A DNA stretch of 64,000 bases from a virus (taxonomy: Duplodnaviria; Caudoviricetes). Position 1 is the first letter of the stretch; each line of letters begins with the position of its first letter. Shown here piece after piece: positions 5,539-62,304 of the stretch. Where the stretch lies: the IMG/VR virus record IMGVR_UViG_3300020420_000671, one strand, 5' to 3'. A program made the translations under genes and the position numbers. The notes beneath the pieces are model-generated. The model saw only the letters and a program-made list of their open reading frames with translations, did not search any database and was not told where the DNA came from.

Positions 5539-6165
5539 ATGATAATTGGTTTATGTGGACTCATTGGAAGTGGTAAAGGTACTGTCGCTGATATCCTTGT
5601 AGATGATCACAAATTTGTAAAAATAAGTTTTGCTGACAAGCTGAAAGACGCCGTGTCTACAATGTTTGACTGGGATAGACAAATGCTAGAAGGTGAAACA
5701 CCCGAAAGTAGATCCTGGCGTGAACAAGAGGACGATTTTTGGACCAAAGAAACAGGCCGTAGAATCACTCCAAGATTAGTGTTACAAGAGTTTGGAACTG
5801 ATTGTATGCGTAATGGTTTTTTTGACGGTGTATGGGTAAGTTTTGTAAGGAAGAAAATATTAGAAAATCCTGATAAAAATTTTGTAATTCCTGATGTAAG
5901 ATTTAACAATGAAGCAGAAATTATACAAGCTATGGGCGGAAAAGTATGGTGTGTTAAACGTGGGCCTGATCCGTTATGGTTTAGGCAATACGTTGATTTA
6001 GACATAGAGCCAACAGATGTACATCCAAGTGAATGGCGTTGGGCAAAAGTAGCCTTTGAACATAACATTTATAATGAAGGTACTATTGATGATCTTAAAA
6101 ATCAGGTACGAGGTCGCCTTGCTTCCACTTTACGCCTTTCTTCTGCAAAAGCCGTTGGCAATTAG
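5539..6165 (+). CDS. Deoxynucleoside monophosphate kinase (T4 gp1-like)
   Basis: IIGLCGLIGSGKGTVA P-loop, SFADKLKDAVS, TPRLVLQEFGTDCMR, VIPDVRFNNEA. Confidence 0.92.
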   Translation: MIIGLCGLIGSGKGTVADILVDDHKFVKISFADKLKDAVSTMFDWDRQMLEGETPESRSWREQEDDFWTKETGRRITPRLVLQEFGTDCMRNGFFDGVWVSFVRKKILENPDKNFVIPDVRFNNEAEIIQAMGGKVWCVKRGPDPLWFRQYVDLDIEPTDVHPSEWRWAKVAFEHNIYNEGTIDDLKNQVRGRLASTLRLSSAKAVGN

Positions 6166-6430
6166 CACATATTGTTTTTAAATTATTAAAGTGTGTGTTA
6201 GTTAAATTACCATCAATATGGTAAACATTAAACTGTTCAGCATGTCCTTTGAAACCACACTTGTCGCATTCACTCTTCATTCTATATCCTGCTTTGTACC
6301 AGGTAGGTATACCATGTCCTTTACCATTATGTAGACAGGACTCACATTGTTTTCTATAATATGTTTTACCAGCCTTCTTGTAGTTAACCGCGGCTGGTCT
6401 TTGATTACAATATAGACATAAAGGACGCAT
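6095..6430 (-). CDS. HNH endonuclease-like Zn-binding protein
   Basis: Three CxxC pairs plus a CDKC pair, and YHIDGNLTNTHFNNLKTICANCQR (HNH-type core). Preceded by a TAAATA box, and overlaps the 3' end of the kinase gene. Confidence 0.7.
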   Translation of the reverse strand: MRPLCLYCNQRPAAVNYKKAGKTYYRKQCESCLHNGKGHGIPTWYKAGYRMKSECDKCGFKGHAEQFNVYHIDGNLTNTHFNNLKTICANCQRLLQKKGVKWKQGDLVPDF

Positions 6431-6535
6431 ACTGTATTTACCATCCCTTTTTGCCCCCTTTTATTATGTTATTTCTTGGTATATTTTTATTAAGATGACT
6501 AAATACATACAACAGTTGATATACAGGAGAACAAA

Positions 6536-12676: not shown

Positions 12677-13114
12677 ATGAAGCGTTGGGCTCAGGGTAAG
12701 TACACACTTAAAAATCCAGACAAGTATGTAGGAAACAAAAGTCCAACTTATAGATCAAGTTGGGAATTTCATTTTATGAAATTCTGTGACGAAAATCCAG
12801 CGATAGCATCGTGGGCAAGTGAAGCTATTAAGATTCCATTTAGAAGTCCGTTAACAGGAAAGCCAACTGTATATGTACCAGACTTTTTTATCCAGTATAA
12901 AGATAAAAAAGGCAGAGCAAGAGTTGAGCTTATAGAAATTAAACCAAGCTCACAAGCAATGCGTGAAAATATAGGAAATAACAAACAGAATCAAGCGTCA
13001 TATGTACTTAATATGGCAAAATGGGAGGCCGCAAGTAAATACTGTAAGTCAAAAGGCATTAGATTCCGTGTAATTACAGAAATGGAATTGTTTCACCAGG
13101 GCAAACGTAAGTGA
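12677..13114 (+). CDS. Head completion nuclease (T4 gp4-like, TnsA-like fold)
   Basis: GKYTLKNPDKYVG, YRSSWEFHFMKFCDENP, WASEAIKIP, YVPDF, IEIKP, NMAKWEAA. Confidence 0.9.
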   Translation: MKRWAQGKYTLKNPDKYVGNKSPTYRSSWEFHFMKFCDENPAIASWASEAIKIPFRSPLTGKPTVYVPDFFIQYKDKKGRARVELIEIKPSSQAMRENIGNNKQNQASYVLNMAKWEAASKYCKSKGIRFRVITEMELFHQGKRK

Positions 13115-34489: not shown

Positions 34490-35330
34490 TTTATGGACAG
34501 ATAACGGTGCACTTAATTCTAAACCTATTTTTACTGCCTTTGCTACTAGCCTTCACAATAACGGCCACTCTGTTCTGTATAATGATATGGCTGGGGATAT
34601 CCATGTTATTTGGAGTGTATTATGGTATGGTCGTATGGCTCCAAACAAAACTGTATGGGACGAAGCACAACGACAAGGAAAGCCAGTAATAGTATTAGAA
34701 GTAGGTGGTATCAAAAGAGGTACTACTTGGAAAGTTGGACTCAATGGTATTAATAGAGAAGCAAACTTTGGTCCAATGGGCAATGATGACTCTCGCGTTC
34801 GTAAGTTAGGACTTACGTTAAAACCTTGGAAATTTAATAATGAGTATGGTGATATAATCATAGCATGTCAACACGCACACAGCCATCAATGGAGAAATCA
34901 AAAATCCGTACAAACATGGGTGTTTGATTCTATTGACTTACTTCGACAACATACCAATAGAAAAATTATAGTAAGACCACATCCAAGAAGTCCTATTCCT
35001 GGCATTCAAAACGAATTTAAAAATGTTATATTACAAGTTCCCTCTCAGATTCCACAAACGTATGATGACTTTGACTTTGATCCTAGTAACGCTTATGCGG
35101 TAGTAAACTGGTCAAGTAATCCTGCTACGCAGGCCGTGATTCAAGGAATACCTGTTTTTGTAGGTCCAGATAGTTTAGCATTTGATGTAGGTTGTACAAA
35201 TCTTGCTAGTATCAATGGTCCTGTAATGCCAGACAGAACACAATGGTTGAATGATATTGCTTATACTGAATGGACTTTGGAAGAAATTGAGCAAGGAATT
35301 CCTTTAAAACGCTTGACATCTAGCTTATAA
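34479..35330 (+). CDS. KpsS/KpsC-like glycosyltransferase paralog 4
   Basis: IVLEVGGI, IIIACQH, IIVRPHP (HP motif), VVNWSSNPATQAVIQGIPVF, AYTEWTLEEI. Confidence 0.65.
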   Translation: MKFSLWTDNGALNSKPIFTAFATSLHNNGHSVLYNDMAGDIHVIWSVLWYGRMAPNKTVWDEAQRQGKPVIVLEVGGIKRGTTWKVGLNGINREANFGPMGNDDSRVRKLGLTLKPWKFNNEYGDIIIACQHAHSHQWRNQKSVQTWVFDSIDLLRQHTNRKIIVRPHPRSPIPGIQNEFKNVILQVPSQIPQTYDDFDFDPSNAYAVVNWSSNPATQAVIQGIPVFVGPDSLAFDVGCTNLASINGPVMPDRTQWLNDIAYTEWTLEEIEQGIPLKRLTSSL

Positions 35331-35341
35331 TCAAGTATAAT
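35313..35341 (+). promoter_or_regulatory. Sigma70-type promoter (perfect consensus)
   Basis: TTGACA, 17 bp, TATAAT. The ATG follows 6 nt later. Confidence 0.85.
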
Positions 35342-35347
35342 ACAGAC

Positions 35348-36589
35348 ATGAAACAAGAAAATTGTGAAGGTCTATTATCTCTTCTAACAGGTATCACTAT
35401 ACCAAGGCCTGTCATGCTGAAGGTATTGGACAACGGATATACGTTATTAGATGCGGATGCTAAAATACTTAAAAGCATAGCAAAGCAACTTTCAAAAGGA
35501 ATTCCTTTAACTAACAGACAGCATAGTTTAGTATTAGATAAACTAGAAAACTATAGAGATCAATTTATTAAAAAAGGAATTGACATTGATTTATATAAAG
35601 ATAAATTGATGTATCCATATAGGCAAATAGACAGATCACATACTTTAAAATTAGATAATGATAAATTAAAAATTAGATTTCCATTTAATAAAAAAATTAT
35701 TGATAGGATAGAAGAAGTAAGACGTGTAGATAATCGTAGTCATGAATATAGTGAAAATACACATACTTTTAAATATACACCACAAACTTTAATGAAGTTA
35801 GTTGAGATAGCAAAAAAGTTTGATCACAAATTTGAGATAGATGAAAATGTTGAAGACATATATCAACAATGTTTAAAGTTTGAGGCAACTAAAGAGGAAT
35901 ATGTACCTGGTGTATACAATTACAAAGTAAAAAATGTACCTGCCATAGTGAAAGACATGTTATTAGATGAAATAGGAGAGTGTAACAGAGATACTCTTCC
36001 GCTGTATTATGACCGTAGAGAACTTTTTGGATTGAAACATTTTGATATGGCAAAAATATCACAAAGCTATGCTAGATTATCTGTATTGACAAATAAAATA
36101 ATACAACGTAAAGATCCAACTATAGTATTACAAACAAAAACGCATACAATCGATCAGTTGGTACAATCACTTATGGAACTGAATAGGTTACCTATATTAA
36201 TTGTGTTAGATGATAAAAAAGCATTAGATCAATTGACTGTTTGTCATAATCATTTTAAAAACGTTATACATAGTTCTGAAATATCAGTTTGTTTTAGAAA
36301 ACCAAATAATGAAGATAGAGATCCTTTCAACGAAATGGTAAGTGAAAAAGGCATCAATAATCCGGTTGACAAAAATTCAAAAATAGTGTATATTAATAAT
36401 AGTAAACTGCCTAAGCCGTTGTTACAGAAAGATTTTTCTCCTAGAGCTATTGTTAGTTTAGGAGGCCACATAATTGGCTTTAACAATGTAACAAACTTTA
36501 TACAACAGTTTGATCTTCAAATAGTATATGAAGATAACAGCTCATCAGTTTACTGGAACAAAAGATTAAGGAAGATAGTAAATGCCTAG
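35348..36589 (+). CDS. Hypothetical protein upstream of the UvsW helicase
   Basis: 413-aa ORF with its own promoter, overlapping the uvsW start. Confidence 0.65.
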   Translation: MKQENCEGLLSLLTGITIPRPVMLKVLDNGYTLLDADAKILKSIAKQLSKGIPLTNRQHSLVLDKLENYRDQFIKKGIDIDLYKDKLMYPYRQIDRSHTLKLDNDKLKIRFPFNKKIIDRIEEVRRVDNRSHEYSENTHTFKYTPQTLMKLVEIAKKFDHKFEIDENVEDIYQQCLKFEATKEEYVPGVYNYKVKNVPAIVKDMLLDEIGECNRDTLPLYYDRRELFGLKHFDMAKISQSYARLSVLTNKIIQRKDPTIVLQTKTHTIDQLVQSLMELNRLPILIVLDDKKALDQLTVCHNHFKNVIHSSEISVCFRKPNNEDRDPFNEMVSEKGINNPVDKNSKIVYINNSKLPKPLLQKDFSPRAIVSLGGHIIGFNNVTNFIQQFDLQIVYEDNSSSVYWNKRLRKIVNA

Positions 36590-39175: not shown

Positions 39176-40462
39176 ATGGCTGATAAAGATTACAAACCAG
39201 TTAAGACAAATAAAGTAGGCGGATCTCCATTTACAGGAGTGCTAGGTTGGGTAGACGATCGACTGCCAATATTTCGTATGTTCAAATATGAATATTTAGA
39301 TTTCCAAGTGCCTAGAAGTTTAAATTACTTTTGGAGTTTTGGAGGCATCCTAATGTTCTGTTTACTAGGACTTATAATCACAGGACTTACATTAGGAATG
39401 CATTACAAGCCTGATGCTGAAAAAGCCTTTTTAAGTGTAGAACATATAATGAGAGATGTAAATTTTGGATGGTTACTGAGATATCTACATATGAATCTTG
39501 CTTCATTCTTTTTCATCGCAGTTTATCTACACATATTTAGAGCAATGTATTTTGGTTCATATAAAGATCCACGGCAAGTGATGTGGCTTATAGGGATCAC
39601 CATATTCTTCTTAATGATGGCCACTGCTTTCTTAGGATATACATTACCTTGGGGGCAAATGAGCTTATGGGGAGCAACAGTAATCACAAGTTTATTCGGA
39701 GCAATACCTCTTGTAGGAGAAACTATTGTCACTTGGTTATGGGGAGGATATGCGGTTGACGATCCAACTATTAATCGATTCTACGTATTACATTGGTTAA
39801 TTGCTTTTATAATTTTAGGTGTTGTAGTATTACATGTTATAGCATTACACATTGTTGGATCTAATAATCCATCAGGTATAGAGCCAAAAGATACTAGAGA
39901 CACAGTATCATTCCATCCATACACAACTGCTAAAGATATGTTTGGCATGGCAGTATTTTTTACAATCTTTGCTATGTTTGTTTTCTTTGTTCCTAACATA
40001 CTAGGACATCCAGACAATTATATTCCTGCCAATCCAATGCAGACACCTGCTCATATTGTTCCTGAATGGTACTTCTTACCTTTCTATGCTATATTAAGAG
40101 CTATCCCTGACAAACTAGGCGGCGTGATTGCTATGGTTAGTGCTATTGGAATACTTGCTTTGTTGCCTTGGTTAGATAGAAGTAAAGTAAGAAGTTGTAT
40201 ATTTAGACCTTTACATCGACAATGGTTTATCTTATTTGTTTTAAATTTTATGATGTTAACTTGGGTTGGTGCTATGCCAGCCGAAGGATATTACATAACT
40301 CTTGGAAGAATCGGAACAGCATATTGGTTCCTATATTTCCTTGTAATAGTGCCGTTGAATAGTGTCCTTGAAAAACCTAAACCTATGCCTAATTCGATCC
40401 ATGAATATTTAGATTGGAAAAAACAAGGCAAAATTAAATCAGTATTTTCATGGATGAAATAA
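39176..40462 (+). CDS. petB: Cytochrome b of the bc1 complex (full length)
   Basis: All four heme His are present (LHMN...LHIF; LHWL...LHVI), with [14 protein letters not shown], the Qo motif [15 protein letters not shown], and DKLGGV. Confidence 0.97.
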
Positions 40463-41640: not shown

Positions 41641-42301
41641 GTTACACAGCACAAGGTATACTAATAAAATGCTTGTTGAATTAGATGGCAAGCCAATGAT
41701 TAAACGTGTGTATGATGCTTGTATGTCAACAGGTTATGATACATTTGTAATCACGGATAGCATGGAAATATTTTCTTTGTTTAATTCTGAAAATTGTTGG
41801 ATAGAAGAAAAGCCATATGAGAATGGAACGGCAAGATGTGCCGGAGCTATTTCAAATAGGTTTTTCAAAGCATATAATACTTTTATAAATGTACAAGGTG
41901 ACATGCCAGATGTTACACCTGAAATGATTAATCAATGTGTAGAATGGTTAAAATATTATTCAGTAAGTACAGTCTACACAACAATGCGGAAAGAAGAACA
42001 AGACAGACCAGAAAGCGTCAAAATGGTACGTGCTGGTGACAAGGCTCTTTGGTTTGGTAGAGGCATGACTGGTTATGGTGATTGGCATCTGGGTGTGTAT
42101 GGATATAGACGAGATGCTTTAGAAATGTATCCAAACTTAGAGATCCCAATTGAAGAAGATGTTGAGAAACTAGAACAACTACGTTGGTTAAAGAATGGCT
42201 GGGATATTGGTTGTTCACATGTTGAATTCAACGGAACCGAAATCAATACAAAAGAAGATATACACGAATGGAATTACAAGAATGGATTACTAAATGGTTG
42301 A
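41609..42301 (+). CDS. kdsB: CMP-Kdo synthetase
   Basis: IPARLHSTR, K...GKPMI, INVQGDMP, HLGVYGYR, EKLEQLRWL. Confidence 0.93.
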   Translation: MKSKAILIPARLHSTRYTNKMLVELDGKPMIKRVYDACMSTGYDTFVITDSMEIFSLFNSENCWIEEKPYENGTARCAGAISNRFFKAYNTFINVQGDMPDVTPEMINQCVEWLKYYSVSTVYTTMRKEEQDRPESVKMVRAGDKALWFGRGMTGYGDWHLGVYGYRRDALEMYPNLEIPIEEDVEKLEQLRWLKNGWDIGCSHVEFNGTEINTKEDIHEWNYKNGLLNG

Positions 42302-42326
42302 CATTGAGCCGTATATGTATTATAAT
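42298..42326 (+). promoter_or_regulatory. Sigma70-type promoter (perfect consensus)
   Basis: TTGACA, 17 bp, TATAAT. The ATG follows 5 nt later. Confidence 0.85.
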
Positions 42327-47670: not shown

Positions 47671-47699
47671 TTGACAATCTGACACTTATATACTATAAT
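47671..47699 (+). promoter_or_regulatory. Sigma70-type promoter (perfect consensus)
   Basis: TTGACA, 17 bp, TATAAT. The ATG follows 6 nt later. Confidence 0.85.
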
Positions 47700-52966: not shown

Positions 52967-54595
52967 ATGAAAACAGACTTAGAAAACATACAATCACTCT
53001 TGGACAGATTTAAAAGGCCAATACCAGACAGAGACAACTATAGGACAAGGCTGGCAGAAGAATTTGAACTTATCCTTAATCAGAGATTCACTGATTACTT
53101 CTTACAAATATGCGATATCATTGATATAACACAAGACCTTACTCACATGACCAGAGGGTCAGCAGGTAGTAGTTTGGTTTGCTACCTACTAGGCATCACA
53201 GATGTTGACCCAATCAAATGGAATATACCTGTAGCACGTTTTATGAATCCATTGCGTGATGACTTACCTGATGTTGATATCGACTTTCAACATTGGCAAC
53301 AGGGTGAAGTAATGAATAGGATATTTAAAAGATGGCCTGGCAAGACAGCAAGACTTTCTAACTACGTAATGTTCAGAGAGAAGAGTGCTAAAAAGGAAGC
53401 GGCCAAACGCTTAGGAGCAAAAGGCAACCTACCAAGAAACTTTACATATGAATCTGTAGGTGTTGACCCAAAAGAAGCAAAACGTATTGAAAGAAAACTT
53501 ATTGGAAAGAAACGTGCCATATCAAAACATTGTGGTGGTATAGTCATGTTCACAAGACAGTTACCAAAGAGTTTGATATCACAGGATAATCAAATACTGT
53601 TAGACAAGTATGAAGTAGAAGACTTGGAACACTTAAAAGTAGATGTACTTGCCAACAGAGGATTATCACAACTATTAGAAATAGATGAAATTACAAAACT
53701 AGAATACTATCCTGAACAGGATGAAGCTACAAGTCGACTACTATGTAGAGGTGATGTGTTAGGTGTAACACAAGGAGAGTCTCCTGCTATGCGTAGATTG
53801 TTTAGAGCGTTACAACCTAAGTCAGTGTACGACTGTGTGTTTGCTACTGCTATGATACGACCAGTGGCAATGAGTGGTAGACAAAAGGCCGCTATGTTTC
53901 AGGATTGGTCACAAGAAGCAGTACAAGACAGTATCGTGTTTGAAGATGACGCTATAGATATTATATCAAACATCATAGGCGTAGACATGTACGAAGCTGA
54001 TATGTATCGTAGAGCGTTTGCTAAAAAAAATGACGAGAAGATACTTGAGTTTGTAGAGAAGATGGGTGGACATCCACGTAAGCAAGAAGCCATGGCCGCA
54101 CTACAAGAACTATCTGGATTTGGATTATGTAGAGCCCATGCTGTTAATCTTGGACGTCTCATATGGGCATTGGCATATCAAAAGGCTCATAACAAAAAAG
54201 AGTTTTGGAAGGCAAACCTAAAACATTGCCAAGGATCTTATCGATCATGGGTGTATCAATGCGAAGCACATAGATTGAACATACCAACTAAAAGCGGTTG
54301 GTGGTGGCACGGCTTTCCAAAAAGACTTGGAGTAAGACAACAGTGGATGGATCGTGTTGAGTTTTCAGGAGTAATAGCCAATGGTAGATGCTATCGTGGT
54401 AAGAAAGGACGCTGGGTAACCTTTCTTACGTTAGGAGTAGACTACGGAGAATACATTGATGTGGTAATCCAAAAACCATTTGCTTATAGAGATGGTGACA
54501 TAGTACATGGATCAGGAAGAGTCAAACACTCCAATAACTCAGACTATATAGATAGTAGTGATGTTAAAAGTTATACGTTTGCGGAGTGGCGATGA
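52967..54595 (+). CDS. dnaE: Compact PHP-less family C DNA polymerase (DnaE-like) with C-terminal OB-fold
   Basis: RGSAGSSLVCYLLGITDVDP, ARFMNPLR..LPDVDIDF, SKHCGG, LKVDVLANRGL, QGESPAMR, FGLCRAHA, and OB-like KKGRWVTFLTL. GGAGG lies before ATG 52967. Confidence 0.85.
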   Translation: MKTDLENIQSLLDRFKRPIPDRDNYRTRLAEEFELILNQRFTDYFLQICDIIDITQDLTHMTRGSAGSSLVCYLLGITDVDPIKWNIPVARFMNPLRDDLPDVDIDFQHWQQGEVMNRIFKRWPGKTARLSNYVMFREKSAKKEAAKRLGAKGNLPRNFTYESVGVDPKEAKRIERKLIGKKRAISKHCGGIVMFTRQLPKSLISQDNQILLDKYEVEDLEHLKVDVLANRGLSQLLEIDEITKLEYYPEQDEATSRLLCRGDVLGVTQGESPAMRRLFRALQPKSVYDCVFATAMIRPVAMSGRQKAAMFQDWSQEAVQDSIVFEDDAIDIISNIIGVDMYEADMYRRAFAKKNDEKILEFVEKMGGHPRKQEAMAALQELSGFGLCRAHAVNLGRLIWALAYQKAHNKKEFWKANLKHCQGSYRSWVYQCEAHRLNIPTKSGWWWHGFPKRLGVRQQWMDRVEFSGVIANGRCYRGKKGRWVTFLTLGVDYGEYIDVVIQKPFAYRDGDIVHGSGRVKHSNNSDYIDSSDVKSYTFAEWR

Positions 54596-55296
54596 AAATT
54601 AAATTTATATGTGGTGATAAACATGTTGCGAAACATTTTCCACCTAAGCCAGCAACCAAAGATAGACCAGACTGGTATAATAAGTTACCTGGATTTCTAG
54701 GTGAACCTTTATCTTCACCACCCACACTTAAAAAATGTATGCCCGTATATGATCATATGACATCAGGGTATATTGTACATAATCCTGTAGAACAAGAAAT
54801 CAGGTGTATGGAAAGAATGGACAATGATGAAATTGTAGCATTCCAGAGAAGATTTCCACAAGCATGGCAGAATCAAGATCCCCAAGAAGGCCACATGCAT
54901 GAACAATGTCCTGTACATGTTAATAATGACGAACGTAGAGATTGGATTACGTTTAGTGTTCCGTGGCGTATAGAAACTCCGCCCGGATATTCCTGTTTGA
55001 TTCAACCTCCATACTTTCATTTTGAAAAGCGATTTACACTATGGCCAGGAATAGTTGATACAGATACAATTGATGTACCTTGGTCCAATTGGCCAGGACA
55101 TATGAATATACCAAAGGGTGAAAGTGTGAAGATACAACCAGGAACTCCTTTGATGCAGGTATTTCCGTTTAAAAGAGAAGATTGGGAAATGGAAATAGAA
55201 GTTGACGAAGCAGGCAAGGCAAGAGATACTAGCCTTAAGTTTTTCTTAACAAACGCATACGCAAGGATATTTCATCGAAAGAAATCTTACAAATAA
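54592..55296 (+). CDS. Hypothetical protein of the dUTPase-like/DUF6065-type phage family
   Basis: KKCMPVYDHMTSGY, PWRIETPPGYSCL, PGIVDTD, PGTPLMQVFPFKRE. Confidence 0.55.
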   Translation: MKIKFICGDKHVAKHFPPKPATKDRPDWYNKLPGFLGEPLSSPPTLKKCMPVYDHMTSGYIVHNPVEQEIRCMERMDNDEIVAFQRRFPQAWQNQDPQEGHMHEQCPVHVNNDERRDWITFSVPWRIETPPGYSCLIQPPYFHFEKRFTLWPGIVDTDTIDVPWSNWPGHMNIPKGESVKIQPGTPLMQVFPFKREDWEMEIEVDEAGKARDTSLKFFLTNAYARIFHRKKSYK

Positions 55297-55373
55297 TGAA
55301 AATAGGTATAGGCGCTCTTGTCACAGCAATAATGGCACTCGTAGCTTGGATAATAAGAAAGTTTAAAAAATGA
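55296..55373 (+). CDS. 25-aa single-TM peptide (not in the ORF track)
   Basis: MKIGIGALVTAIMALVAWIIRKFKK. TAATG-coupled upstream and ATGA-coupled downstream. Confidence 0.55.
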   Translation: MKIGIGALVTAIMALVAWIIRKFKK

Positions 55374-56149
55374 TAATAACAACAAGCCAACAACCAGTAT
55401 TCGCAGAAGTGAAAGAAAATTTAGAATGTTTGATAGACGTACTAGATACCCACAAGGAATCAGATTGGATACTAACACCAGAGGGTAGTCTAAGTGGATA
55501 TTGTTTGAATCAGACCCATGAACAAAAGAACAAGGAATATAACGAGGCCCTAGCAAAACTAGAAAAATATTTGCTAGACAACAAAAGAAATTTACTACTG
55601 GGTACAGGACATATCGAGCCAGACGGCTTACCCTACAACCAAATACGTGTTTATAGACAGGGGGTATGTGTTGGGGTTTACAATAAACAACTATTAACCA
55701 ATGACGTTGGTGCTATGGGTGAGTATTATTTCTATACCCCTGGTAATGCGTGTGGATATTTTTATCTAGACTCTCTAGCCAAATTTAAAGCGTCGACATT
55801 GATCTGTAATGACGTATGGGCTTTTCCACAAGTAAGTCCTAACGGTAATCCATATTTTTATAGAGAGATTAGTCAACATGGAGCAAAGATAGTTTTTGTT
55901 TCTGTAAACTGTTGTACAGATAAACATGATGAACTTGTATACAACTATCACGAATCACATCTTAGACTCTTAAGCAGACAGTTTAACGTACACACAGTTG
56001 TAAGTTCGGCATGTACAGACATGAGAGGTGAATCTACTAACGAAAAAATACAATGTCCAAGTGGTATAATAGATCCAAACGGTAAATGGGTAAGGAAGTG
56101 TGAAGACGTAGGCATGGACAGCGTTACAGCGGAGATAAAACTTGCCTAG
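55370..56149 (+). CDS. Carbon-nitrogen hydrolase paralog 2
   Basis: LTPEGSLSGY, YNKQLL, ICNDVW. Shares PNGNPY and C(S/P)SGII(G/D)P(D/N)G with paralog 1. Confidence 0.85.
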   Translation: MIITTSQQPVFAEVKENLECLIDVLDTHKESDWILTPEGSLSGYCLNQTHEQKNKEYNEALAKLEKYLLDNKRNLLLGTGHIEPDGLPYNQIRVYRQGVCVGVYNKQLLTNDVGAMGEYYFYTPGNACGYFYLDSLAKFKASTLICNDVWAFPQVSPNGNPYFYREISQHGAKIVFVSVNCCTDKHDELVYNYHESHLRLLSRQFNVHTVVSSACTDMRGESTNEKIQCPSGIIDPNGKWVRKCEDVGMDSVTAEIKLA

Positions 56150-56933
56150 AACGTTATGGATATATGGTGACAGTTTTGCTGTTGATTGGAAAGTAGATTG
56201 GTGTTGGCAAAGGCAATTGGCAGGATCTTTGAAAATAGATAGAGTAGTGAATCAAGCCTGTGCTGGTTCATCAAATGAATGGAGTGCCATGCAGTTCCGA
56301 GATGACAAACAACAGCCAGGAGACATTGTAGTATTCTTTACTACCGAACATTCACGTCAATGGTTTTTTAAAGACAGACCTCATCTAAGCAATCTTGGTA
56401 GTATCACAGACACACATGACGCAAAGGCTCTTAAAAATTCTGAGCCTGAAAAGTATGATGCTGTGATGAACTATTGGTTACATCTACAACGTGATGATAT
56501 TGATCAATTGCGTATGGAACATATGATTGACAGTATACGTGTTAAGCAGATTGAAAATGAATTACATTTACTGTTGATTCCTAGCTTTGATTCAAATATG
56601 ATGTGGACTGATCTTATACCTGTGAAGGGTAACATGACGTTTAGTGTTTGTGATAAAGAGTTTGTAAACGAACAAGAAATGTTGCTGTGGTACAACCAAT
56701 CAATAGACACCAGAGCTAATCACATGACACTCGCTAACCATTCTATATTTGCTGAGAAGGTTGTACAAAGTTTAAGCGACAAGAAAATATTAGATTTAGA
56801 AACAGGATTTGAAACTGGCTTCTTAACACACAAACAAAAACTATCACATCCAGGTTTACTGCCTGAATTGATAGAAAAAGCAAAGGGACCTGGTAATTCG
56901 TTACCAAAAGAGTGCTTTACCGAAAGTGCTTGA
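56142..56933 (+). CDS. SGNH/GDSL-like hydrolase
   Basis: IYGDSF (block I), NQACAGSSN (block II), ANHM (catalytic His). TTG start with GGAG RBS. Confidence 0.6.
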   Translation: MPRTLWIYGDSFAVDWKVDWCWQRQLAGSLKIDRVVNQACAGSSNEWSAMQFRDDKQQPGDIVVFFTTEHSRQWFFKDRPHLSNLGSITDTHDAKALKNSEPEKYDAVMNYWLHLQRDDIDQLRMEHMIDSIRVKQIENELHLLLIPSFDSNMMWTDLIPVKGNMTFSVCDKEFVNEQEMLLWYNQSIDTRANHMTLANHSIFAEKVVQSLSDKKILDLETGFETGFLTHKQKLSHPGLLPELIEKAKGPGNSLPKECFTESA

Positions 56934-56958
56934 CAAAACAACCAAATCGTAGTATAGT
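56930..56958 (+). promoter_or_regulatory. Sigma70-type promoter driving the transporter pair
   Basis: TTGACA (56930-56935), 17 bp, TATAGT (56953-56958). Confidence 0.75.
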
Positions 56959-56967
56959 ATAGAAAAG

Positions 56968-57441
56968 ATGAGCAAAAATTTATTTTACTTGATAGTATTC
57001 GTGTCTACTATCGCCTTGAGTAGAATAATACCACACCCACCCAATTTTACACCAATACTAGCAGTGGCAGTAATGGCTCCAATGATTACTGGAGCAACAT
57101 TGTCAGGCATAGCAATAGCATTAGGTTCAATGATGTTAAGTGATTTATATTTTGGTTGGCATAGTACATTAGGGGTGGTATACATGTCCATAGCATTGTG
57201 TAGTTTCATACCAAGGTACATCAACAACGCATACCTAGCAGGATCAATTGCTAGTGTATTGTTTTTTGTGATTACCAACTTTGCTGTATGGCTTACAGGA
57301 TATTATGGATTAACTTGGCAAGGACTTATAGCATGTTACGTAGCGGCTATACCGTTCTTTGCTAACACACTAACAGGCACATTATTTTACACTTTGATTA
57401 TAAAATCAGTAGTTACGATACAAAGGAGGATTTATGCGTAA
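56968..57441 (+). CDS. DUF6580-like integral membrane protein (proposed ECF-type vitamin transporter S-component)
   Basis: SRIIPHPPNFTPI, MMLSDLYFG, LFFVITNFAVW, CYVAAIPFFANTLTG; 157 aa and strongly hydrophobic. Confidence 0.7.
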   Translation: MSKNLFYLIVFVSTIALSRIIPHPPNFTPILAVAVMAPMITGATLSGIAIALGSMMLSDLYFGWHSTLGVVYMSIALCSFIPRYINNAYLAGSIASVLFFVITNFAVWLTGYYGLTWQGLIACYVAAIPFFANTLTGTLFYTLIIKSVVTIQRRIYA

Positions 57442-59227
57442 ACTATTTTTTATATTCCTATTTTTAGGAATGGCATATTCAAACGTGGCTTCAGCAATGA
57501 TGGAGATTACTATCTACCTAACACGTAGTAACACGGATCAAGCATCAGCTACAACCACATATGACTATGTAGACAAGTACACATTGGAAGTTCAAAATAC
57601 CCAAGACTTTATACAAGCAGTCAATGGTGTTACAGGACTAAACATGGTACAAAGCGGACCCACAGGACAAAACGTTAGTTTGTTTATGCGAGGTGGTGAC
57701 AGTAACCACACGTTGGTAACAATGAACGGATTACCTATCAAGGACGCTTCGACTACAAACGGACTACACGACTTTGGTCAAGACTTCATGTCCAGCATCA
57801 GTGCTATTGAAATTATTAAAAATCCAAGTGGTGCTATGGTAGGACCAAATTCAATAGGCGGAGTTGTTAACTTTATCACAGGTGAGTTTTATGAAAACTC
57901 AATAACATTCAAAGCAGGATCAAACAACACAAAAGGTATGGAACTGCGGGTACACAACCAAACCAAGAACGGCACACAGTTGTTCATTACAGCAAGTGGT
58001 ACAGACAGTGATGGTATCAGTGTTAAGGAAGGAACTGAAGACGATGGATATTCTGTACGTAACTTCAGCATAGGTTCCTACACTAGATTGGAAGACGGTT
58101 ATATCAAAACCAATATACTACACAAGGACAATGACAGTGACCTTGACGGAACTTCCGATGACCCAGACTATACTGCCAACAACAAGAACAACGTGTATCA
58201 AATCATTGCCAAGAAGAACAACGAATTGGGACATGCGGATCTAGCAATTGGTTACACAACATACGATAGAACATACACCAATGGTAGTGAGATAGATGAG
58301 TATGACAGTAACAGTACCAACGTGATGTTAAGCCAGACCATTGTAAAGGACAACATAGACTTTGTTCCAGGTATAGAATACGAAAGCCAAGAAGCCAAGT
58401 TCAACAACAGAGGATCATACACAAGTTCGGTTGATGCCAATCATTGGAACACGGCTTATTTCTTAAACTCTAATTGGCGAACATCAGACAAGTCAATGAT
58501 CAGTTCAGGTGTTAGATTGGATCACTTGGAAGACTATGATGATTACTACACATACAAGTTAGGAGCATACTACTACTTGACAGAAGATCTCAAACTGAGA
58601 ACAAACTGGTCAAACTCTGTGCGTACTCCTACACTATATGAAAAGTATGGTGCTGATAACTTTGGTTACTCGGGTAACCCGACACTGGGAGTTGAAAAGG
58701 GTGAAACACTGGATCTAGGATTTACCTATGGTGCTTTTGATGTGGTTTACTATACAACGGATATCAATGATGCTATTACCTATGGCAACTCAACATACTC
58801 AAACGTTTCAGGTACAAGTGAACGCAAAGGAGTTGAAGCAAACTATAATTATGTGTTCAATGAAGAATGGCAACACAACATTGGTGGTCATTGGAACATA
58901 GCAGAAGACTCATCAGGTACACAGTTGTTGCGTAGACCTAAGTGGACATTTAACCAGAGCTTTGTGAAACAGGAACTTACAGGCAAGTTTACAACCACAG
59001 TGACTCACAGCTACACTGGTGAACATGTTGATCTAGATGCCAGTACCTATGCTCGTAAGGACATGCCCGGAGTACATCTGTTTGATCTACATCATTCAAT
59101 AAACTTCAGTGCGGACACATCAATAACTGCTAGTTTAATGAACGTTACTGATGAGAATTACGAAAGACCAGACGGCTATAACCAAAACGGTAGAACTTGG
59201 TTAATCAGCTACAAAAAGAAATTCTAA
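57434..59227 (+). CDS. TonB-dependent outer-membrane receptor, BtuB-like
   Basis: Signal peptide, TonB-box-like EITIY, plug motif QSGPTGQNVSLFMRGGDSNHTLVTMNG, IEIIKNP, RTPTLYEKY, LLRRPK, NVTDENYE, and C-terminal Phe; 597 aa. Confidence 0.88.
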   Translation: MRKLFFIFLFLGMAYSNVASAMMEITIYLTRSNTDQASATTTYDYVDKYTLEVQNTQDFIQAVNGVTGLNMVQSGPTGQNVSLFMRGGDSNHTLVTMNGLPIKDASTTNGLHDFGQDFMSSISAIEIIKNPSGAMVGPNSIGGVVNFITGEFYENSITFKAGSNNTKGMELRVHNQTKNGTQLFITASGTDSDGISVKEGTEDDGYSVRNFSIGSYTRLEDGYIKTNILHKDNDSDLDGTSDDPDYTANNKNNVYQIIAKKNNELGHADLAIGYTTYDRTYTNGSEIDEYDSNSTNVMLSQTIVKDNIDFVPGIEYESQEAKFNNRGSYTSSVDANHWNTAYFLNSNWRTSDKSMISSGVRLDHLEDYDDYYTYKLGAYYYLTEDLKLRTNWSNSVRTPTLYEKYGADNFGYSGNPTLGVEKGETLDLGFTYGAFDVVYYTTDINDAITYGNSTYSNVSGTSERKGVEANYNYVFNEEWQHNIGGHWNIAEDSSGTQLLRRPKWTFNQSFVKQELTGKFTTTVTHSYTGEHVDLDASTYARKDMPGVHLFDLHHSINFSADTSITASLMNVTDENYERPDGYNQNGRTWLISYKKKF

Positions 59228-59251
59228 AAAGATAGGCCGAAAATACACCAT

Positions 59252-59280
59252 GGCGACAGACCCCTGTCGCCTATGGTTTT
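59252..59280 (+). terminator. Hairpin after the TonB-dependent receptor
   Basis: GGCGACAG-ACCC-CTGTCGCC followed by TATGGTTTT. Confidence 0.55.
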
Positions 59281-59388
59281 CCCACCTAAATGGCTCTTAA
59301 ATGCCGGTTTATGCGATTCTGAGTATAGTTGTAGTGTTTGTGATTTGACCGTGCTAAAAAGGCGTTTAAATGCGTATAAACACCAAGT

Positions 59389-59574
59389 TTATGGAGACTG
59401 TTCAGTGCCTTCTGCTATACAGGTAAAGCTCTCGCCCAGCACTCTGTTTTCCCATTCGTATACCACTGCTTCCCAGCAGTTCTGTTGATCGTAGAAATAG
59501 TCTATTGCTTCGCCTTGTACTTCGCCAGCGGCTGTGATCCAAACGGCTACAAGTATGTAACCGAACTCTATCAA
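59389..59574 (-). CDS. Small hypothetical protein
   Basis: ATGA-coupled to the heme oxygenase; hydrophobic N-terminus with two Cys. Confidence 0.5.
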   Translation of the reverse strand: MIEFGYILVAVWITAAGEVQGEAIDYFYDQQNCWEAVVYEWENRVLGESFTCIAEGTEQSP

Positions 59575-60104
59575 CTGTCCAATTCCTCGAACAGTTTCAT
59601 TGCGTATTCAAAACACACGTTGGCTTCTGGTGCCATGCCATCATGTAGCTTGGCTCTCACGTCTTCAATGATCTGCTTGGCATTGTCAAAGTCATACATC
59701 TTGCCTGACCCTGGTGCTCGTTTCTTGATCATCTGACCACCGTGTAGCTCACCAAAGTGCCTCACGTATAGATGTGCCAATATGCCGTCATCGTCCAAGC
59801 CTTCAACGTAGTCCGTGTACTCATGTACCACTGGACACAGTTCTGTCGTGCCTCTGTCAAAGCCATGCTCCTGTTCAAGCTCTGTGAGATCCTCCACCAT
59901 GCCTGGCACACGGCAGATGCCTTCTATGCCTTTCAGCAGTCCTCGTTCACGTGCTTGGTCTTCAAGTGCGCCATACTGTACGCATTGGTTGTATATGAAT
60001 CTGTGATATTCTTCTGGTTCCATGCCCTTGAGTAGCTTACGAGCATGTGTCATGCGTTCAGCCTTCTTGTGGTTTTCCCAGGTAAGTTCTTTAAGTTTGC
60101 TCAT
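59571..60104 (-). CDS. Heme oxygenase (biliverdin-producing, HO1-like)
   Basis: LKELTWENHKKAE (proximal His), AHLYVRHFGELHGGQMI (distal helix), EANVCF. Confidence 0.85.
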   Translation of the reverse strand: MSKLKELTWENHKKAERMTHARKLLKGMEPEEYHRFIYNQCVQYGALEDQARERGLLKGIEGICRVPGMVEDLTELEQEHGFDRGTTELCPVVHEYTDYVEGLDDDGILAHLYVRHFGELHGGQMIKKRAPGSGKMYDFDNAKQIIEDVRAKLHDGMAPEANVCFEYAMKLFEELDS

Positions 60105-60117
60105 GCGTATATTTACA

Positions 60118-60645
60118 CTAGTGAGTGTTCCCCATAATCAAATGTGGTTGGCACATGGTAACGAACACTACGAAAAGAGGATCGTTCTTCTGTTCAGGAT
60201 CTATGCCCTGTTCGTCTATCCATTGATCCTGCAGATCAAAAGCATCAATCTCCAGGGCCTGTTTACATTCAGCTCGTTCATACTCTCCATCATAGTACTG
60301 TACAAAGTGTACCAGTTCATGTACCAGTACCACTTCCGCAAAGTGATCCTCCACCATGTGTTGAGTGACCGTGTCAGATATAACGATGTGGTTACTGTCG
60401 TGGTCGTAGTAACCTGCTATGTTACAGTCCGCATGCGGTTCAGCATCTGGAAATATTTCCGAGCATACTTCTAGTGGTGACTGCCTTGAAACTGTGGGAT
60501 ATGGATCTCCATGATATTCAAAACGACTGTTGTCAACTATCCACTGTACCATGCTGTCCACTGTGTGATTGCTGTGATCAGCGTGGGCTGGAAAACAACC
60601 TGTTAACAGAGTCAGTAGTGTACATAATAAGATCGTTCTCAGCAT
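60118..60645 (-). CDS. Exported HExxH-motif protein (zincin-like)
   Basis: N-terminal signal peptide; VLVHELVHFVQ followed by a downstream LEIDA. Confidence 0.65.
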   Translation of the reverse strand: MLRTILLCTLLTLLTGCFPAHADHSNHTVDSMVQWIVDNSRFEYHGDPYPTVSRQSPLEVCSEIFPDAEPHADCNIAGYYDHDSNHIVISDTVTQHMVEDHFAEVVLVHELVHFVQYYDGEYERAECKQALEIDAFDLQDQWIDEQGIDPEQKNDPLFVVFVTMCQPHLIMGNTH

Positions 60646-62267: not shown

Positions 62268-62304
62268 ATTATAAGGTCTGACTGTGTGTTTTGTCAACCC
62301 CTAA
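62268..62304 (-). promoter_or_regulatory. Early promoter copy 1 (TTAGGGGTTGACA)
   Basis: TTAGGGGTTGACA, 18 bp, TATAAT on the minus strand. Confidence 0.8.

Follow-up and report, generated by a model that had tools for sequence, protein, structure and literature searches.

The window analysed here is a stretch of 64,000 nucleotides (nt) of viral DNA (Duplodnaviria; Caudoviricetes; IMG/VR record IMGVR_UViG_3300020420_000671) and contains, between a promoter at 56930 and a hairpin that ends at 59281, a two-gene cassette for a small membrane protein of the DUF6580 family and a TonB-dependent receptor that resembles BtuB. We consider it probable, at roughly 70 %, that the cassette is a phage-borne module for the uptake of corrinoid (vitamin B12) that spans both membranes. 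What it carries and in which direction, what energises it and where the cofactor is used are matters that we infer from the comparisons below. That corrinoid is the likeliest substrate, as had been proposed from the letters alone (the sequence-only reading), is supported by the BtuB matches of the receptor, by the S-component fold of its partner and by linkage to cobalamin riboswitches both in cells and in sister phages. The proposed pairing of a BtuB-like receptor with a protein resembling the S-components of energy-coupling factor (ECF) transporters in one two-gene unit is likewise supported by profiles and folds, and its elements (promoter, DUF6580 gene overlapping an intact receptor gene, AAGGAGG ribosome-binding site and hairpin) are all present where they had been placed.

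The source of the window is an uncultured marine T4-like jumbo phage, which encodes a tail sheath, a tail tube and a large terminase with 54 % identity to that of Pseudomonas phage PA5oct; no DNA similarity to the window was found among cultured phages. DNA and protein searches of INPHARED found neither the DUF6580 gene nor the receptor gene in cultured phages, and the only receptor matches there were Salmonella btuB genes in mislabelled bacterial records.

Receptor and inner-membrane partner

The receptor gene (57434–59227, + strand) encodes a protein of 597 aa whose Plug and TonB-dependent barrel domains both exceed the Pfam gathering score (E-values, 1.4e-15 and 3.4e-26). Its best NCBIfam profile is TIGR01779 TonB-B12 (E-value, 1e-52; 179.2 bits), and the best profile that is not for B12, the heme/transferrin profile TIGR01786, gives 76.1 bits against a cut-off of 323.75. 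When PDB sequences were searched with the receptor, BtuB came first (E-value, 1e-20) and Cir next. The AlphaFold model, with a predicted local distance difference test score (pLDDT) of 84.6, has a visible plug and barrel, and Foldseek ranks 1–12 for it are all E. coli BtuB (E-values, 2e-35 to 1e-31; template modelling score, 0.86–0.90; root mean square deviation (rmsd), 2.6–3.2), followed by Cir (E-value, 1e-29; rmsd, 4.1) and the heme receptor ChuA (E-value, 4e-27; rmsd, 4.3). Compared with heme and siderophore receptors, BtuB is thus the top match by profile, by PDB sequence and by fold, as the sequence-only reading had anticipated.

A signal peptide is predicted at residues 1–21, ending in ASA (57434–57496, +), from the sequence and from its alignment to the signal peptides of BtuB and relatives. 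It is followed by a candidate Ton box, residues 23–30 MEITIYLT (57500–57523, +), which aligns with DTLVVTA at mature residues 6–12 of E. coli BtuB; at its C terminus the receptor has KKF, with Phe as the final residue. Of the positions that we take to be the calcium ligands of E. coli BtuB, to which we give no weight, 193, 195 and 230 are acidic here (E, D and D) and 179 and 241 are not conserved. The receptor may take up cobalamin in a TonB-dependent manner. In Tara, BATS and further metagenomes its sequences form dozens of clusters at 90 % identity.

The partner gene (56968–57441, +; 157 aa) belongs to DUF6580 (Pfam PF20221; E-value, 7e-34), with a score of 117.9 bits against a cut-off of 27 over profile positions 6–154 of 162. 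The protein keeps every invariant residue of the family alignment A1, the invariant residues being PHPxNFTP in loop 1, D59, G63 and H65 around loop 3, and C123. Its AlphaFold model (pLDDT, 87.8) has six helices arranged as in ECF S-components, and in a comparison by VIA-align with 48,161 chains the top 15 were all ECF S-components (RibU, BtuM, BioY, FolT, ThiT, PanT and CbiM; Z, 9.2–12.2), with BtuM bound to hydroxocobalamin (8OVV) tied at the top (Z, 12.0; rmsd, 3.1; 149 residues). Among chains that are not S-components, MreD reached Z 9.1 and other folds began at Z of about 6. VIA-align was needed for a clear fold; Foldseek matched S-component families weakly (E-value of about 1), and phmmer, run against all PDB sequences at E <= 10, gave one unrelated chain and no BtuM. 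The cobalt ligand of BtuM_Td is Cys80 in loop 3 (PMC6072759). The modelled loop 3 of the DUF6580 protein consists of residues 63–67 (G-W-H-S-T) with no Cys, and the sole invariant Cys is C123. As modelled, DUF6580 has a BtuM-like fold and is not a member of the BtuM family, and we regard it as a putative inner-membrane corrinoid carrier.

We note that the gene also occurs in other forms. In subclade A2 of the window's relatives the DUF6580 protein is only 128 aa long (L010 9672–10058, L011 4694–5080, L012 217–603 and L013 500–886) and begins exactly at the NFTP motif, so that it lacks helix 1 together with the invariant PHPP loop. Other marine jumbo phages (L014–L018) have DUF6580 without a receptor; the gene lies at 6001–6486 in each, just upstream of the genes for primase and DnaB. 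These phages encode kdsA, kdsB, peptide deformylase and coproporphyrinogen oxidase as well, and no riboswitch was found at the DUF6580 loci. Conversely, the IMG/VR viral contigs L002–L005 encode a TonB-dependent receptor of about 28 % identity within tRNA gene arrays (L002 5099–6634), with neither DUF6580 nor a riboswitch at the locus, and these may represent a third way for phages to carry such receptors.

In a maximum-likelihood tree of the receptors, with E. coli BtuB, CirA, FepA and FhuA as references, the clade of the window (clade A, 11 rows, support 100) is sister to a clade of riboswitch-bearing phage relatives (clade B, support 97), with 81 for the joint node. Both lie within a clade of 98 % support that includes further phage-like sequences, and its sister is formed by the riboswitch-linked receptors of Pelagibacteraceae (support 99). 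The comparison with heme receptors was made by profile and fold rank. Riboswitch-linked receptors have 38 signature columns that are at least 90 % conserved among them and that CirA, FepA and FhuA do not share; of these the window keeps 34 and clade A 32. Among the three closest genomes the ratio of non-synonymous to synonymous substitution (dN/dS) is 0.07–0.09 for the receptor and 0.065–0.09 for DUF6580, at dS up to 1.0, and both cassette genes are under purifying selection.

Riboswitch linkage, promoter and gene layout

DUF6580 is linked to cobalamin at cellular loci, 80 of which were taken from species-representative genomes of many phyla and 41 scanned with Rfam. A cobalamin-class riboswitch lies within 4 kb of DUF6580 at 25 of the 41 (19/34 from many phyla and 6/7 from further Pelagibacteraceae); 17 of these riboswitches are upstream on the same strand, many in the order riboswitch, receptor, DUF6580. 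The Pelagibacteraceae order is an AdoCbl-II riboswitch, a TonB-dependent receptor 27–32 % identical to that of the phage, and DUF6580. The decisive evidence is that from phages. In phage relatives whose receptors are 43–49 % identical to that of the window, and which have the same overlapping pair with DUF6580 first, an AdoCbl-II riboswitch (79–85 bits; E-values, about 1e-18 to 1e-20) lies directly upstream of the pair (L007/L009, L102, L105, L107 and L108). L102–L106 are clearly phage, with the pair between terminase and uvsX/uvsW, and the 324-kb contig L007 encodes ClpXP, ribosomal protein S21 and ThyX. On L115, which is phage-like and more distant, the AdoCbl-II riboswitch (5934–6014) lies between the DUF6580 and receptor genes, and because of this placement it would control the receptor only. 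The riboswitch family RF01689, whose ligands are hydroxo- and methylcobalamin, exerts its control on translation (PMC5028336).

The window itself has no such element. An Rfam scan of 56000–59600 at E <= 10 found no riboswitch, a scan of the whole window at the gathering score found no family, and the stop codon of the upstream ORF (56931–56933) falls within the −35 box, so that the intergenic gap is only 34 nt. The sequence-only reading was therefore right that there is neither a riboswitch nor room for one, although what is true of the window is not basic to the phage module, since sister lineages carry AdoCbl-II. In clade B a promoter of the form TTGACA-17-TAtAAT ends 7–8 nt before the aptamer and is followed by a leader of about 180 nt up to the ATG. 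As sister phages have promoter, riboswitch and ATG in succession whereas the window promoter abuts its ATG, the riboswitch-free state most likely reflects a clean loss of the leader of about 180 nt in the window lineage, with the promoter kept. A phage-like pair in L113/L114 also has no riboswitch, and the simplest reading is that an ancestrally riboswitch-controlled module lost its switch both in clade A and in the lineage of L113.

The cassette promoter (56930–56958, +) is of the sigma-70 type, with TTGACA at 56930–56935, a 17-nt spacer and TATAGT at 56953–56958, and agrees with the consensus at 11/12 positions. It is the top-scoring site in the 6.5 kb from 54000 to 60500, and both hexamers are kept in L019, L001 and L010–L012 (receptors 60–93 % identical) despite diverged surroundings. 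Exactly 9 nt separate the −10 box from the ATG at 56968, where the sequence-only reading had estimated about 9. The window has five sites of the form TTGACA-N15-18-TAWRRT where 1.1 would be expected. None of 100 shuffles gave as many as five, and four of the five end 5–9 nt before start codons (35348, 42332, 47706 and 56968). Those at 35313–35341, 42298–42326 and 47671–47699 (all +) are perfect TTGACA-N17/18-TATAAT promoters ending 5–6 nt before the ATGs at 35348, 42332 and 47706, and another perfect one lies on the minus strand at 62268–62297. Leaderless mRNAs thus appear to be general for the host-type promoters of this phage, given the 5–6 nt between the plus-strand promoters and their ATGs; and since four of the five sites are placed next to a start codon, this is the standard gene start of the phage rather than a special device of the cassette. 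The promoter type suggests early timing. The import had been called unregulated, and this holds in that the window provides no B12 feedback, but the phage's own temporal programme still applies.

The DUF6580 and receptor genes share an 8-nt overlap, ATGCGTAA, which covers the DUF6580 stop codon, and the ribosome-binding site of the receptor gene, AAGGAGG (57423–57429, +), falls within the last part of the DUF6580 gene (its 3′ end), with 4 nt between it and the ATG at 57434. Downstream of the receptor gene, scan match and folding identify a hairpin at 59247–59281 (+) whose 13-bp stem with one bulge (59247–59277) is followed by UUUU; the 68-nt hairpin region folds at −24.8 kcal/mol (z, −5.0), and the stem is invariant in L019 and L001, with a different loop in L001. 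It is likely to be the terminator of the two-gene unit.

Some further features were seen in the noncoding stretch in which this hairpin lies. The stretch (59228–59390, about 160 nt) is nearly invariant in L019 and L001 though the flanking genes have a dS of 0.6–1.0, and it also contains a minus-strand terminator-like hairpin (59361–59384) that would serve a converging heme oxygenase operon. It may encode a small RNA as well. L019, with a receptor 93 % identical to that of the window, carries a glutamine riboswitch (RF01739, 49.9 bits; 12683–12734, − strand) in some 325 nt inserted between its receptor gene and its heme oxygenase operon. Neither this insertion nor the glutamine riboswitch is present in the window, where the equivalent position would lie between 59300 and 59400.

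A mechanism can be proposed for the module as a route for corrinoid. Host RNA polymerase would use the consensus sigma-70-type promoter to make a nearly leaderless two-gene mRNA, with DUF6580 translated from the mRNA 5′ end and the receptor from its own AAGGAGG site at the overlap. The receptor would be exported via Sec, inserted in the outer membrane and take up cobalamin in a TonB-type energised step, after which the S-component-like DUF6580 protein could move it over the inner membrane, as proposed for BtuM. In sister phages the AdoCbl-II riboswitch would turn the module off when cellular B12 is sufficient, and in the window lineage, with the leader lost, uptake would be governed by the phage expression programme alone. 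The imported cofactor would most likely be used by cobalamin-dependent enzymes, both those of the phage and those of the infected cell, with class B radical S-adenosylmethionine (SAM) methyltransferases as the best candidates. A more specific picture is only tentative: that marine jumbo/T4-like phages carry complete two-membrane B12 import together with AdoCbl-II, that some lineages retain feedback by B12 and others do not, that loss of the sensor here leads to constitutive B12 loading of infected SAR11-type cells for cobalamin-dependent radical SAM enzymes of the phage, and that, as the hosts have no recognisable TonB, a partner of some unrecognised kind energises the receptors of this clade.

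The consumer of the cofactor is suggested by genes near the pair in relatives. A 593-aa radical SAM gene lies four to five genes downstream of the pair in L007 and L113; its closest NCBIfam family is that of the KedN5 methylcobalamin-dependent C-methyltransferase (E-value, 2e-46, below the cut-off), and Pfam detects no B12-binding domain in the L007 protein. L115 encodes a PhpK/B12-type radical SAM protein and has two B12-type radical SAM genes and clpP upstream of its riboswitch, and no B12-binding domain was found in a 66.7-kb IMG/VR relative. As radical SAM genes recur near the pair in relatives, class B radical SAM enzymes are indicated, and not the class II ribonucleotide reductase or methionine synthase (MetH) suggested by the sequence-only reading; we found nothing that ties the module to either of the latter.

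Corrinoid uptake weighed against other roles

Several observations weigh against a role in corrinoid uptake. The receptor falls far under the equivalog cut-offs for BtuB-type profiles (TIGR01779, 179.2 against 599.7 bits; NF007926, 130.6 against 836), and in the tree E. coli BtuB lies outside with CirA, FepA and FhuA on long branches, so that its relation to BtuB is not resolved there. Pfam scans of 49 further window ORFs, on which the annotation of 20–64 kb is based, found no B12-dependent enzyme, TonB, ExbB/D or BtuCDF in that part of the window, and its Pfam hits also include no ECF module (EcfT/EcfA). A TonB C-terminal domain (PF03544, TIGR01352) was detected in 0/5 partial Pelagibacteraceae genomes that have the cellular module. 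These are the single-cell genomes G002–G006, from which loci L023, L095, L099, L070 and L042 derive and which encode riboswitch-controlled TonB-dependent receptors; all five encode proteins with B12-binding domains, and the missing TonB domain reflects either their incompleteness or an energiser that is not recognised. For the host TonB invoked by the sequence-only reading, this is a reason for caution rather than a refutation. In subclade A2 (L010–L013) DUF6580 is 32–34 % identical to that of the window, compared with 60 % for the receptor. The inner-membrane partner may thus be dispensable in A2, being truncated and diverged while the receptor stays 60 % identical, and it seems to be decaying or changing there. 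Finally, the phage has a set of heme-related genes, and one for heme oxygenase (59571–60104, −; Pfam E-value, 1.5e-13) converges on the cassette.

Loss of the riboswitch raises the question whether the receptor could have switched its substrate afterwards, and now takes up heme or another non-corrin tetrapyrrole, with heme serving the oxygenase (for iron or bilins) or the cytochrome b. We regard this as unlikely. The window does encode a full cytochrome b (39176–40462, +), a ferrochelatase gene adjoins the cassette of L010 (6968–8080), and coproporphyrinogen oxidase is found in the DUF6580-alone phages L015/L016; a change of substrate would also predict loss of a B12 riboswitch, and the stem branch of clade A is fairly long (0.45). 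However, the heme/transferrin profile gives 76 bits where that for B12 gives 179, the heme receptors ChuA, ShuA and PhuR rank below every BtuB structure (rmsd, 4.3–5.7 against 2.6), and retention of 34 of the 38 family-specific positions makes a switch to heme improbable. The oxygenase is adjacent only in the closest relatives L019–L021 and not in L010–L013 or clade B, and the B12-linked DUF6580 partner is retained under purifying selection. Heme receptors have a conserved His between FRAP-like and NPNL-like boxes; the phage receptor has no His between its RTPTLYE and NPTL boxes. We note that the phage group of the window unites a heme gene set with corrinoid uptake genes.

A role at the cell envelope, such as a block to superinfection, masking or replacement of a receptor, or a change of the envelope in which the small membrane protein would be an accessory, seems to us distinctly improbable. 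TonB-dependent receptors, BtuB included, are classic phage and colicin receptors, subclade A2 keeps its receptor while its DUF6580 is truncated and fast-diverging, and the window lineage has no metabolite control, all of which would fit such a role. Against it, sister phages couple the same pair to cobalamin by a riboswitch, which fits a nutritional role, positions specific to the ligand family are conserved, the pair is repeatedly found near B12-type radical SAM genes in relatives, and nothing that was observed points to exclusion. The suggestion of the sequence-only reading that the phage alters the phage-receptor landscape of the cell found no support.

That the cassette is host DNA, through contamination, chimeric assembly or recent functionless pickup, is scarcely credible even though neither gene is known from the cultured phages of INPHARED, since the gene order CN-hydrolase, 263-aa ORF, DUF6580, receptor recurs in metagenome and IMG/VR assemblies that are independent of each other and stem from different projects (receptors 60–93 % identical, phage genes on both flanks), the G+C content of 0.39–0.40 is similar to that of adjoining genes, the promoter is of the phage's own type, dN/dS is below 0.1 and the phage sequences form deep clades of their own. 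The concern about host contamination attached to the sequence-only reading is thus excluded by synteny, selection and phylogeny.

Relation to known systems

We found no published description of a phage B12 uptake module and, in the literature searched, no paper naming DUF6580. Literature on phage btuB as an auxiliary gene yielded BtuB only as a phage receptor, and a survey of pelagimyophages lists no riboswitches and is silent on both TonB and B12. The kind of route is known, that of BtuB with an S-component-like carrier; here it is phage-borne and stripped of its sensor. New are the riboswitch polymorphism among phage lineages and the fusion of promoter to ATG in place of the leader, with the positions of the substrate family retained.

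Vitamin B12, which few microbes make, is in short supply in the ocean and shapes plankton communities. Marine phages of a widespread group appear to have a B12 uptake route of their own, and infection would then redirect the traffic of this cofactor, which is not part of current models of marine B12 cycling or of phage auxiliary metabolism. The phage data also offer independent comparative support for DUF6580, a very common and uncharacterized family, as an inner-membrane B12 carrier. Comparable phage modules with the riboswitch upstream, between the genes or absent amount to a natural experiment in regulation, and outer-membrane transporters are very unusual phage cargo.

The receptor is like E. 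coli BtuB (PDB 1NQE–1NQH, 2GSK) in having a plug and barrel, a similar size (597 aa compared with a 614-aa precursor), a Ton-box-like strand at the aligned position and a terminal Phe, and BtuB is its top match in profile, sequence and fold; control by a cobalamin riboswitch, as of E. coli btuB, is found in its sister phage and cellular relatives. It differs in that identity is about 21 %, the score is below the equivalog cut-off and orthology is unresolved in the tree, and in that it is carried by a lytic-type jumbo phage with no leader and is translationally coupled to an inner-membrane partner that is not BtuCDF. DUF6580 shares with BtuM of Thiobacillus denitrificans (PDB 6FFV, 8OVV; PMC6072759) a small six-helix S-component fold, genomic linkage to a BtuB-like receptor with no ECF module evident, and the same proposed role as a B12 carrier, although it has no detectable sequence similarity to BtuM, belongs to a different family (PF20221) and has no conserved Cys in loop 3.

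The loci of Pelagibacteraceae and other marine bacteria contain the same two protein families, with receptors that form the sister clade of the phage receptors (27–32 % identity), and their AdoCbl-II riboswitch class is that of the sister phages. The receptor comes first in cells, whereas DUF6580 comes first in every paired phage locus, and unlike in the window the cellular genes do not overlap in this way and a riboswitch is present.

The classical auxiliary metabolic genes for nutrient acquisition are pstS and phoA of cyanophages. Like these, the cassette is a phage-encoded part of a host uptake pathway that is presumably expressed in infection against a nutrient bottleneck. It differs from them in that the phage of the window supplies both outer- and inner-membrane components, that the nutrient is a cofactor, and that sister lineages also carry a metabolite-sensing riboswitch.

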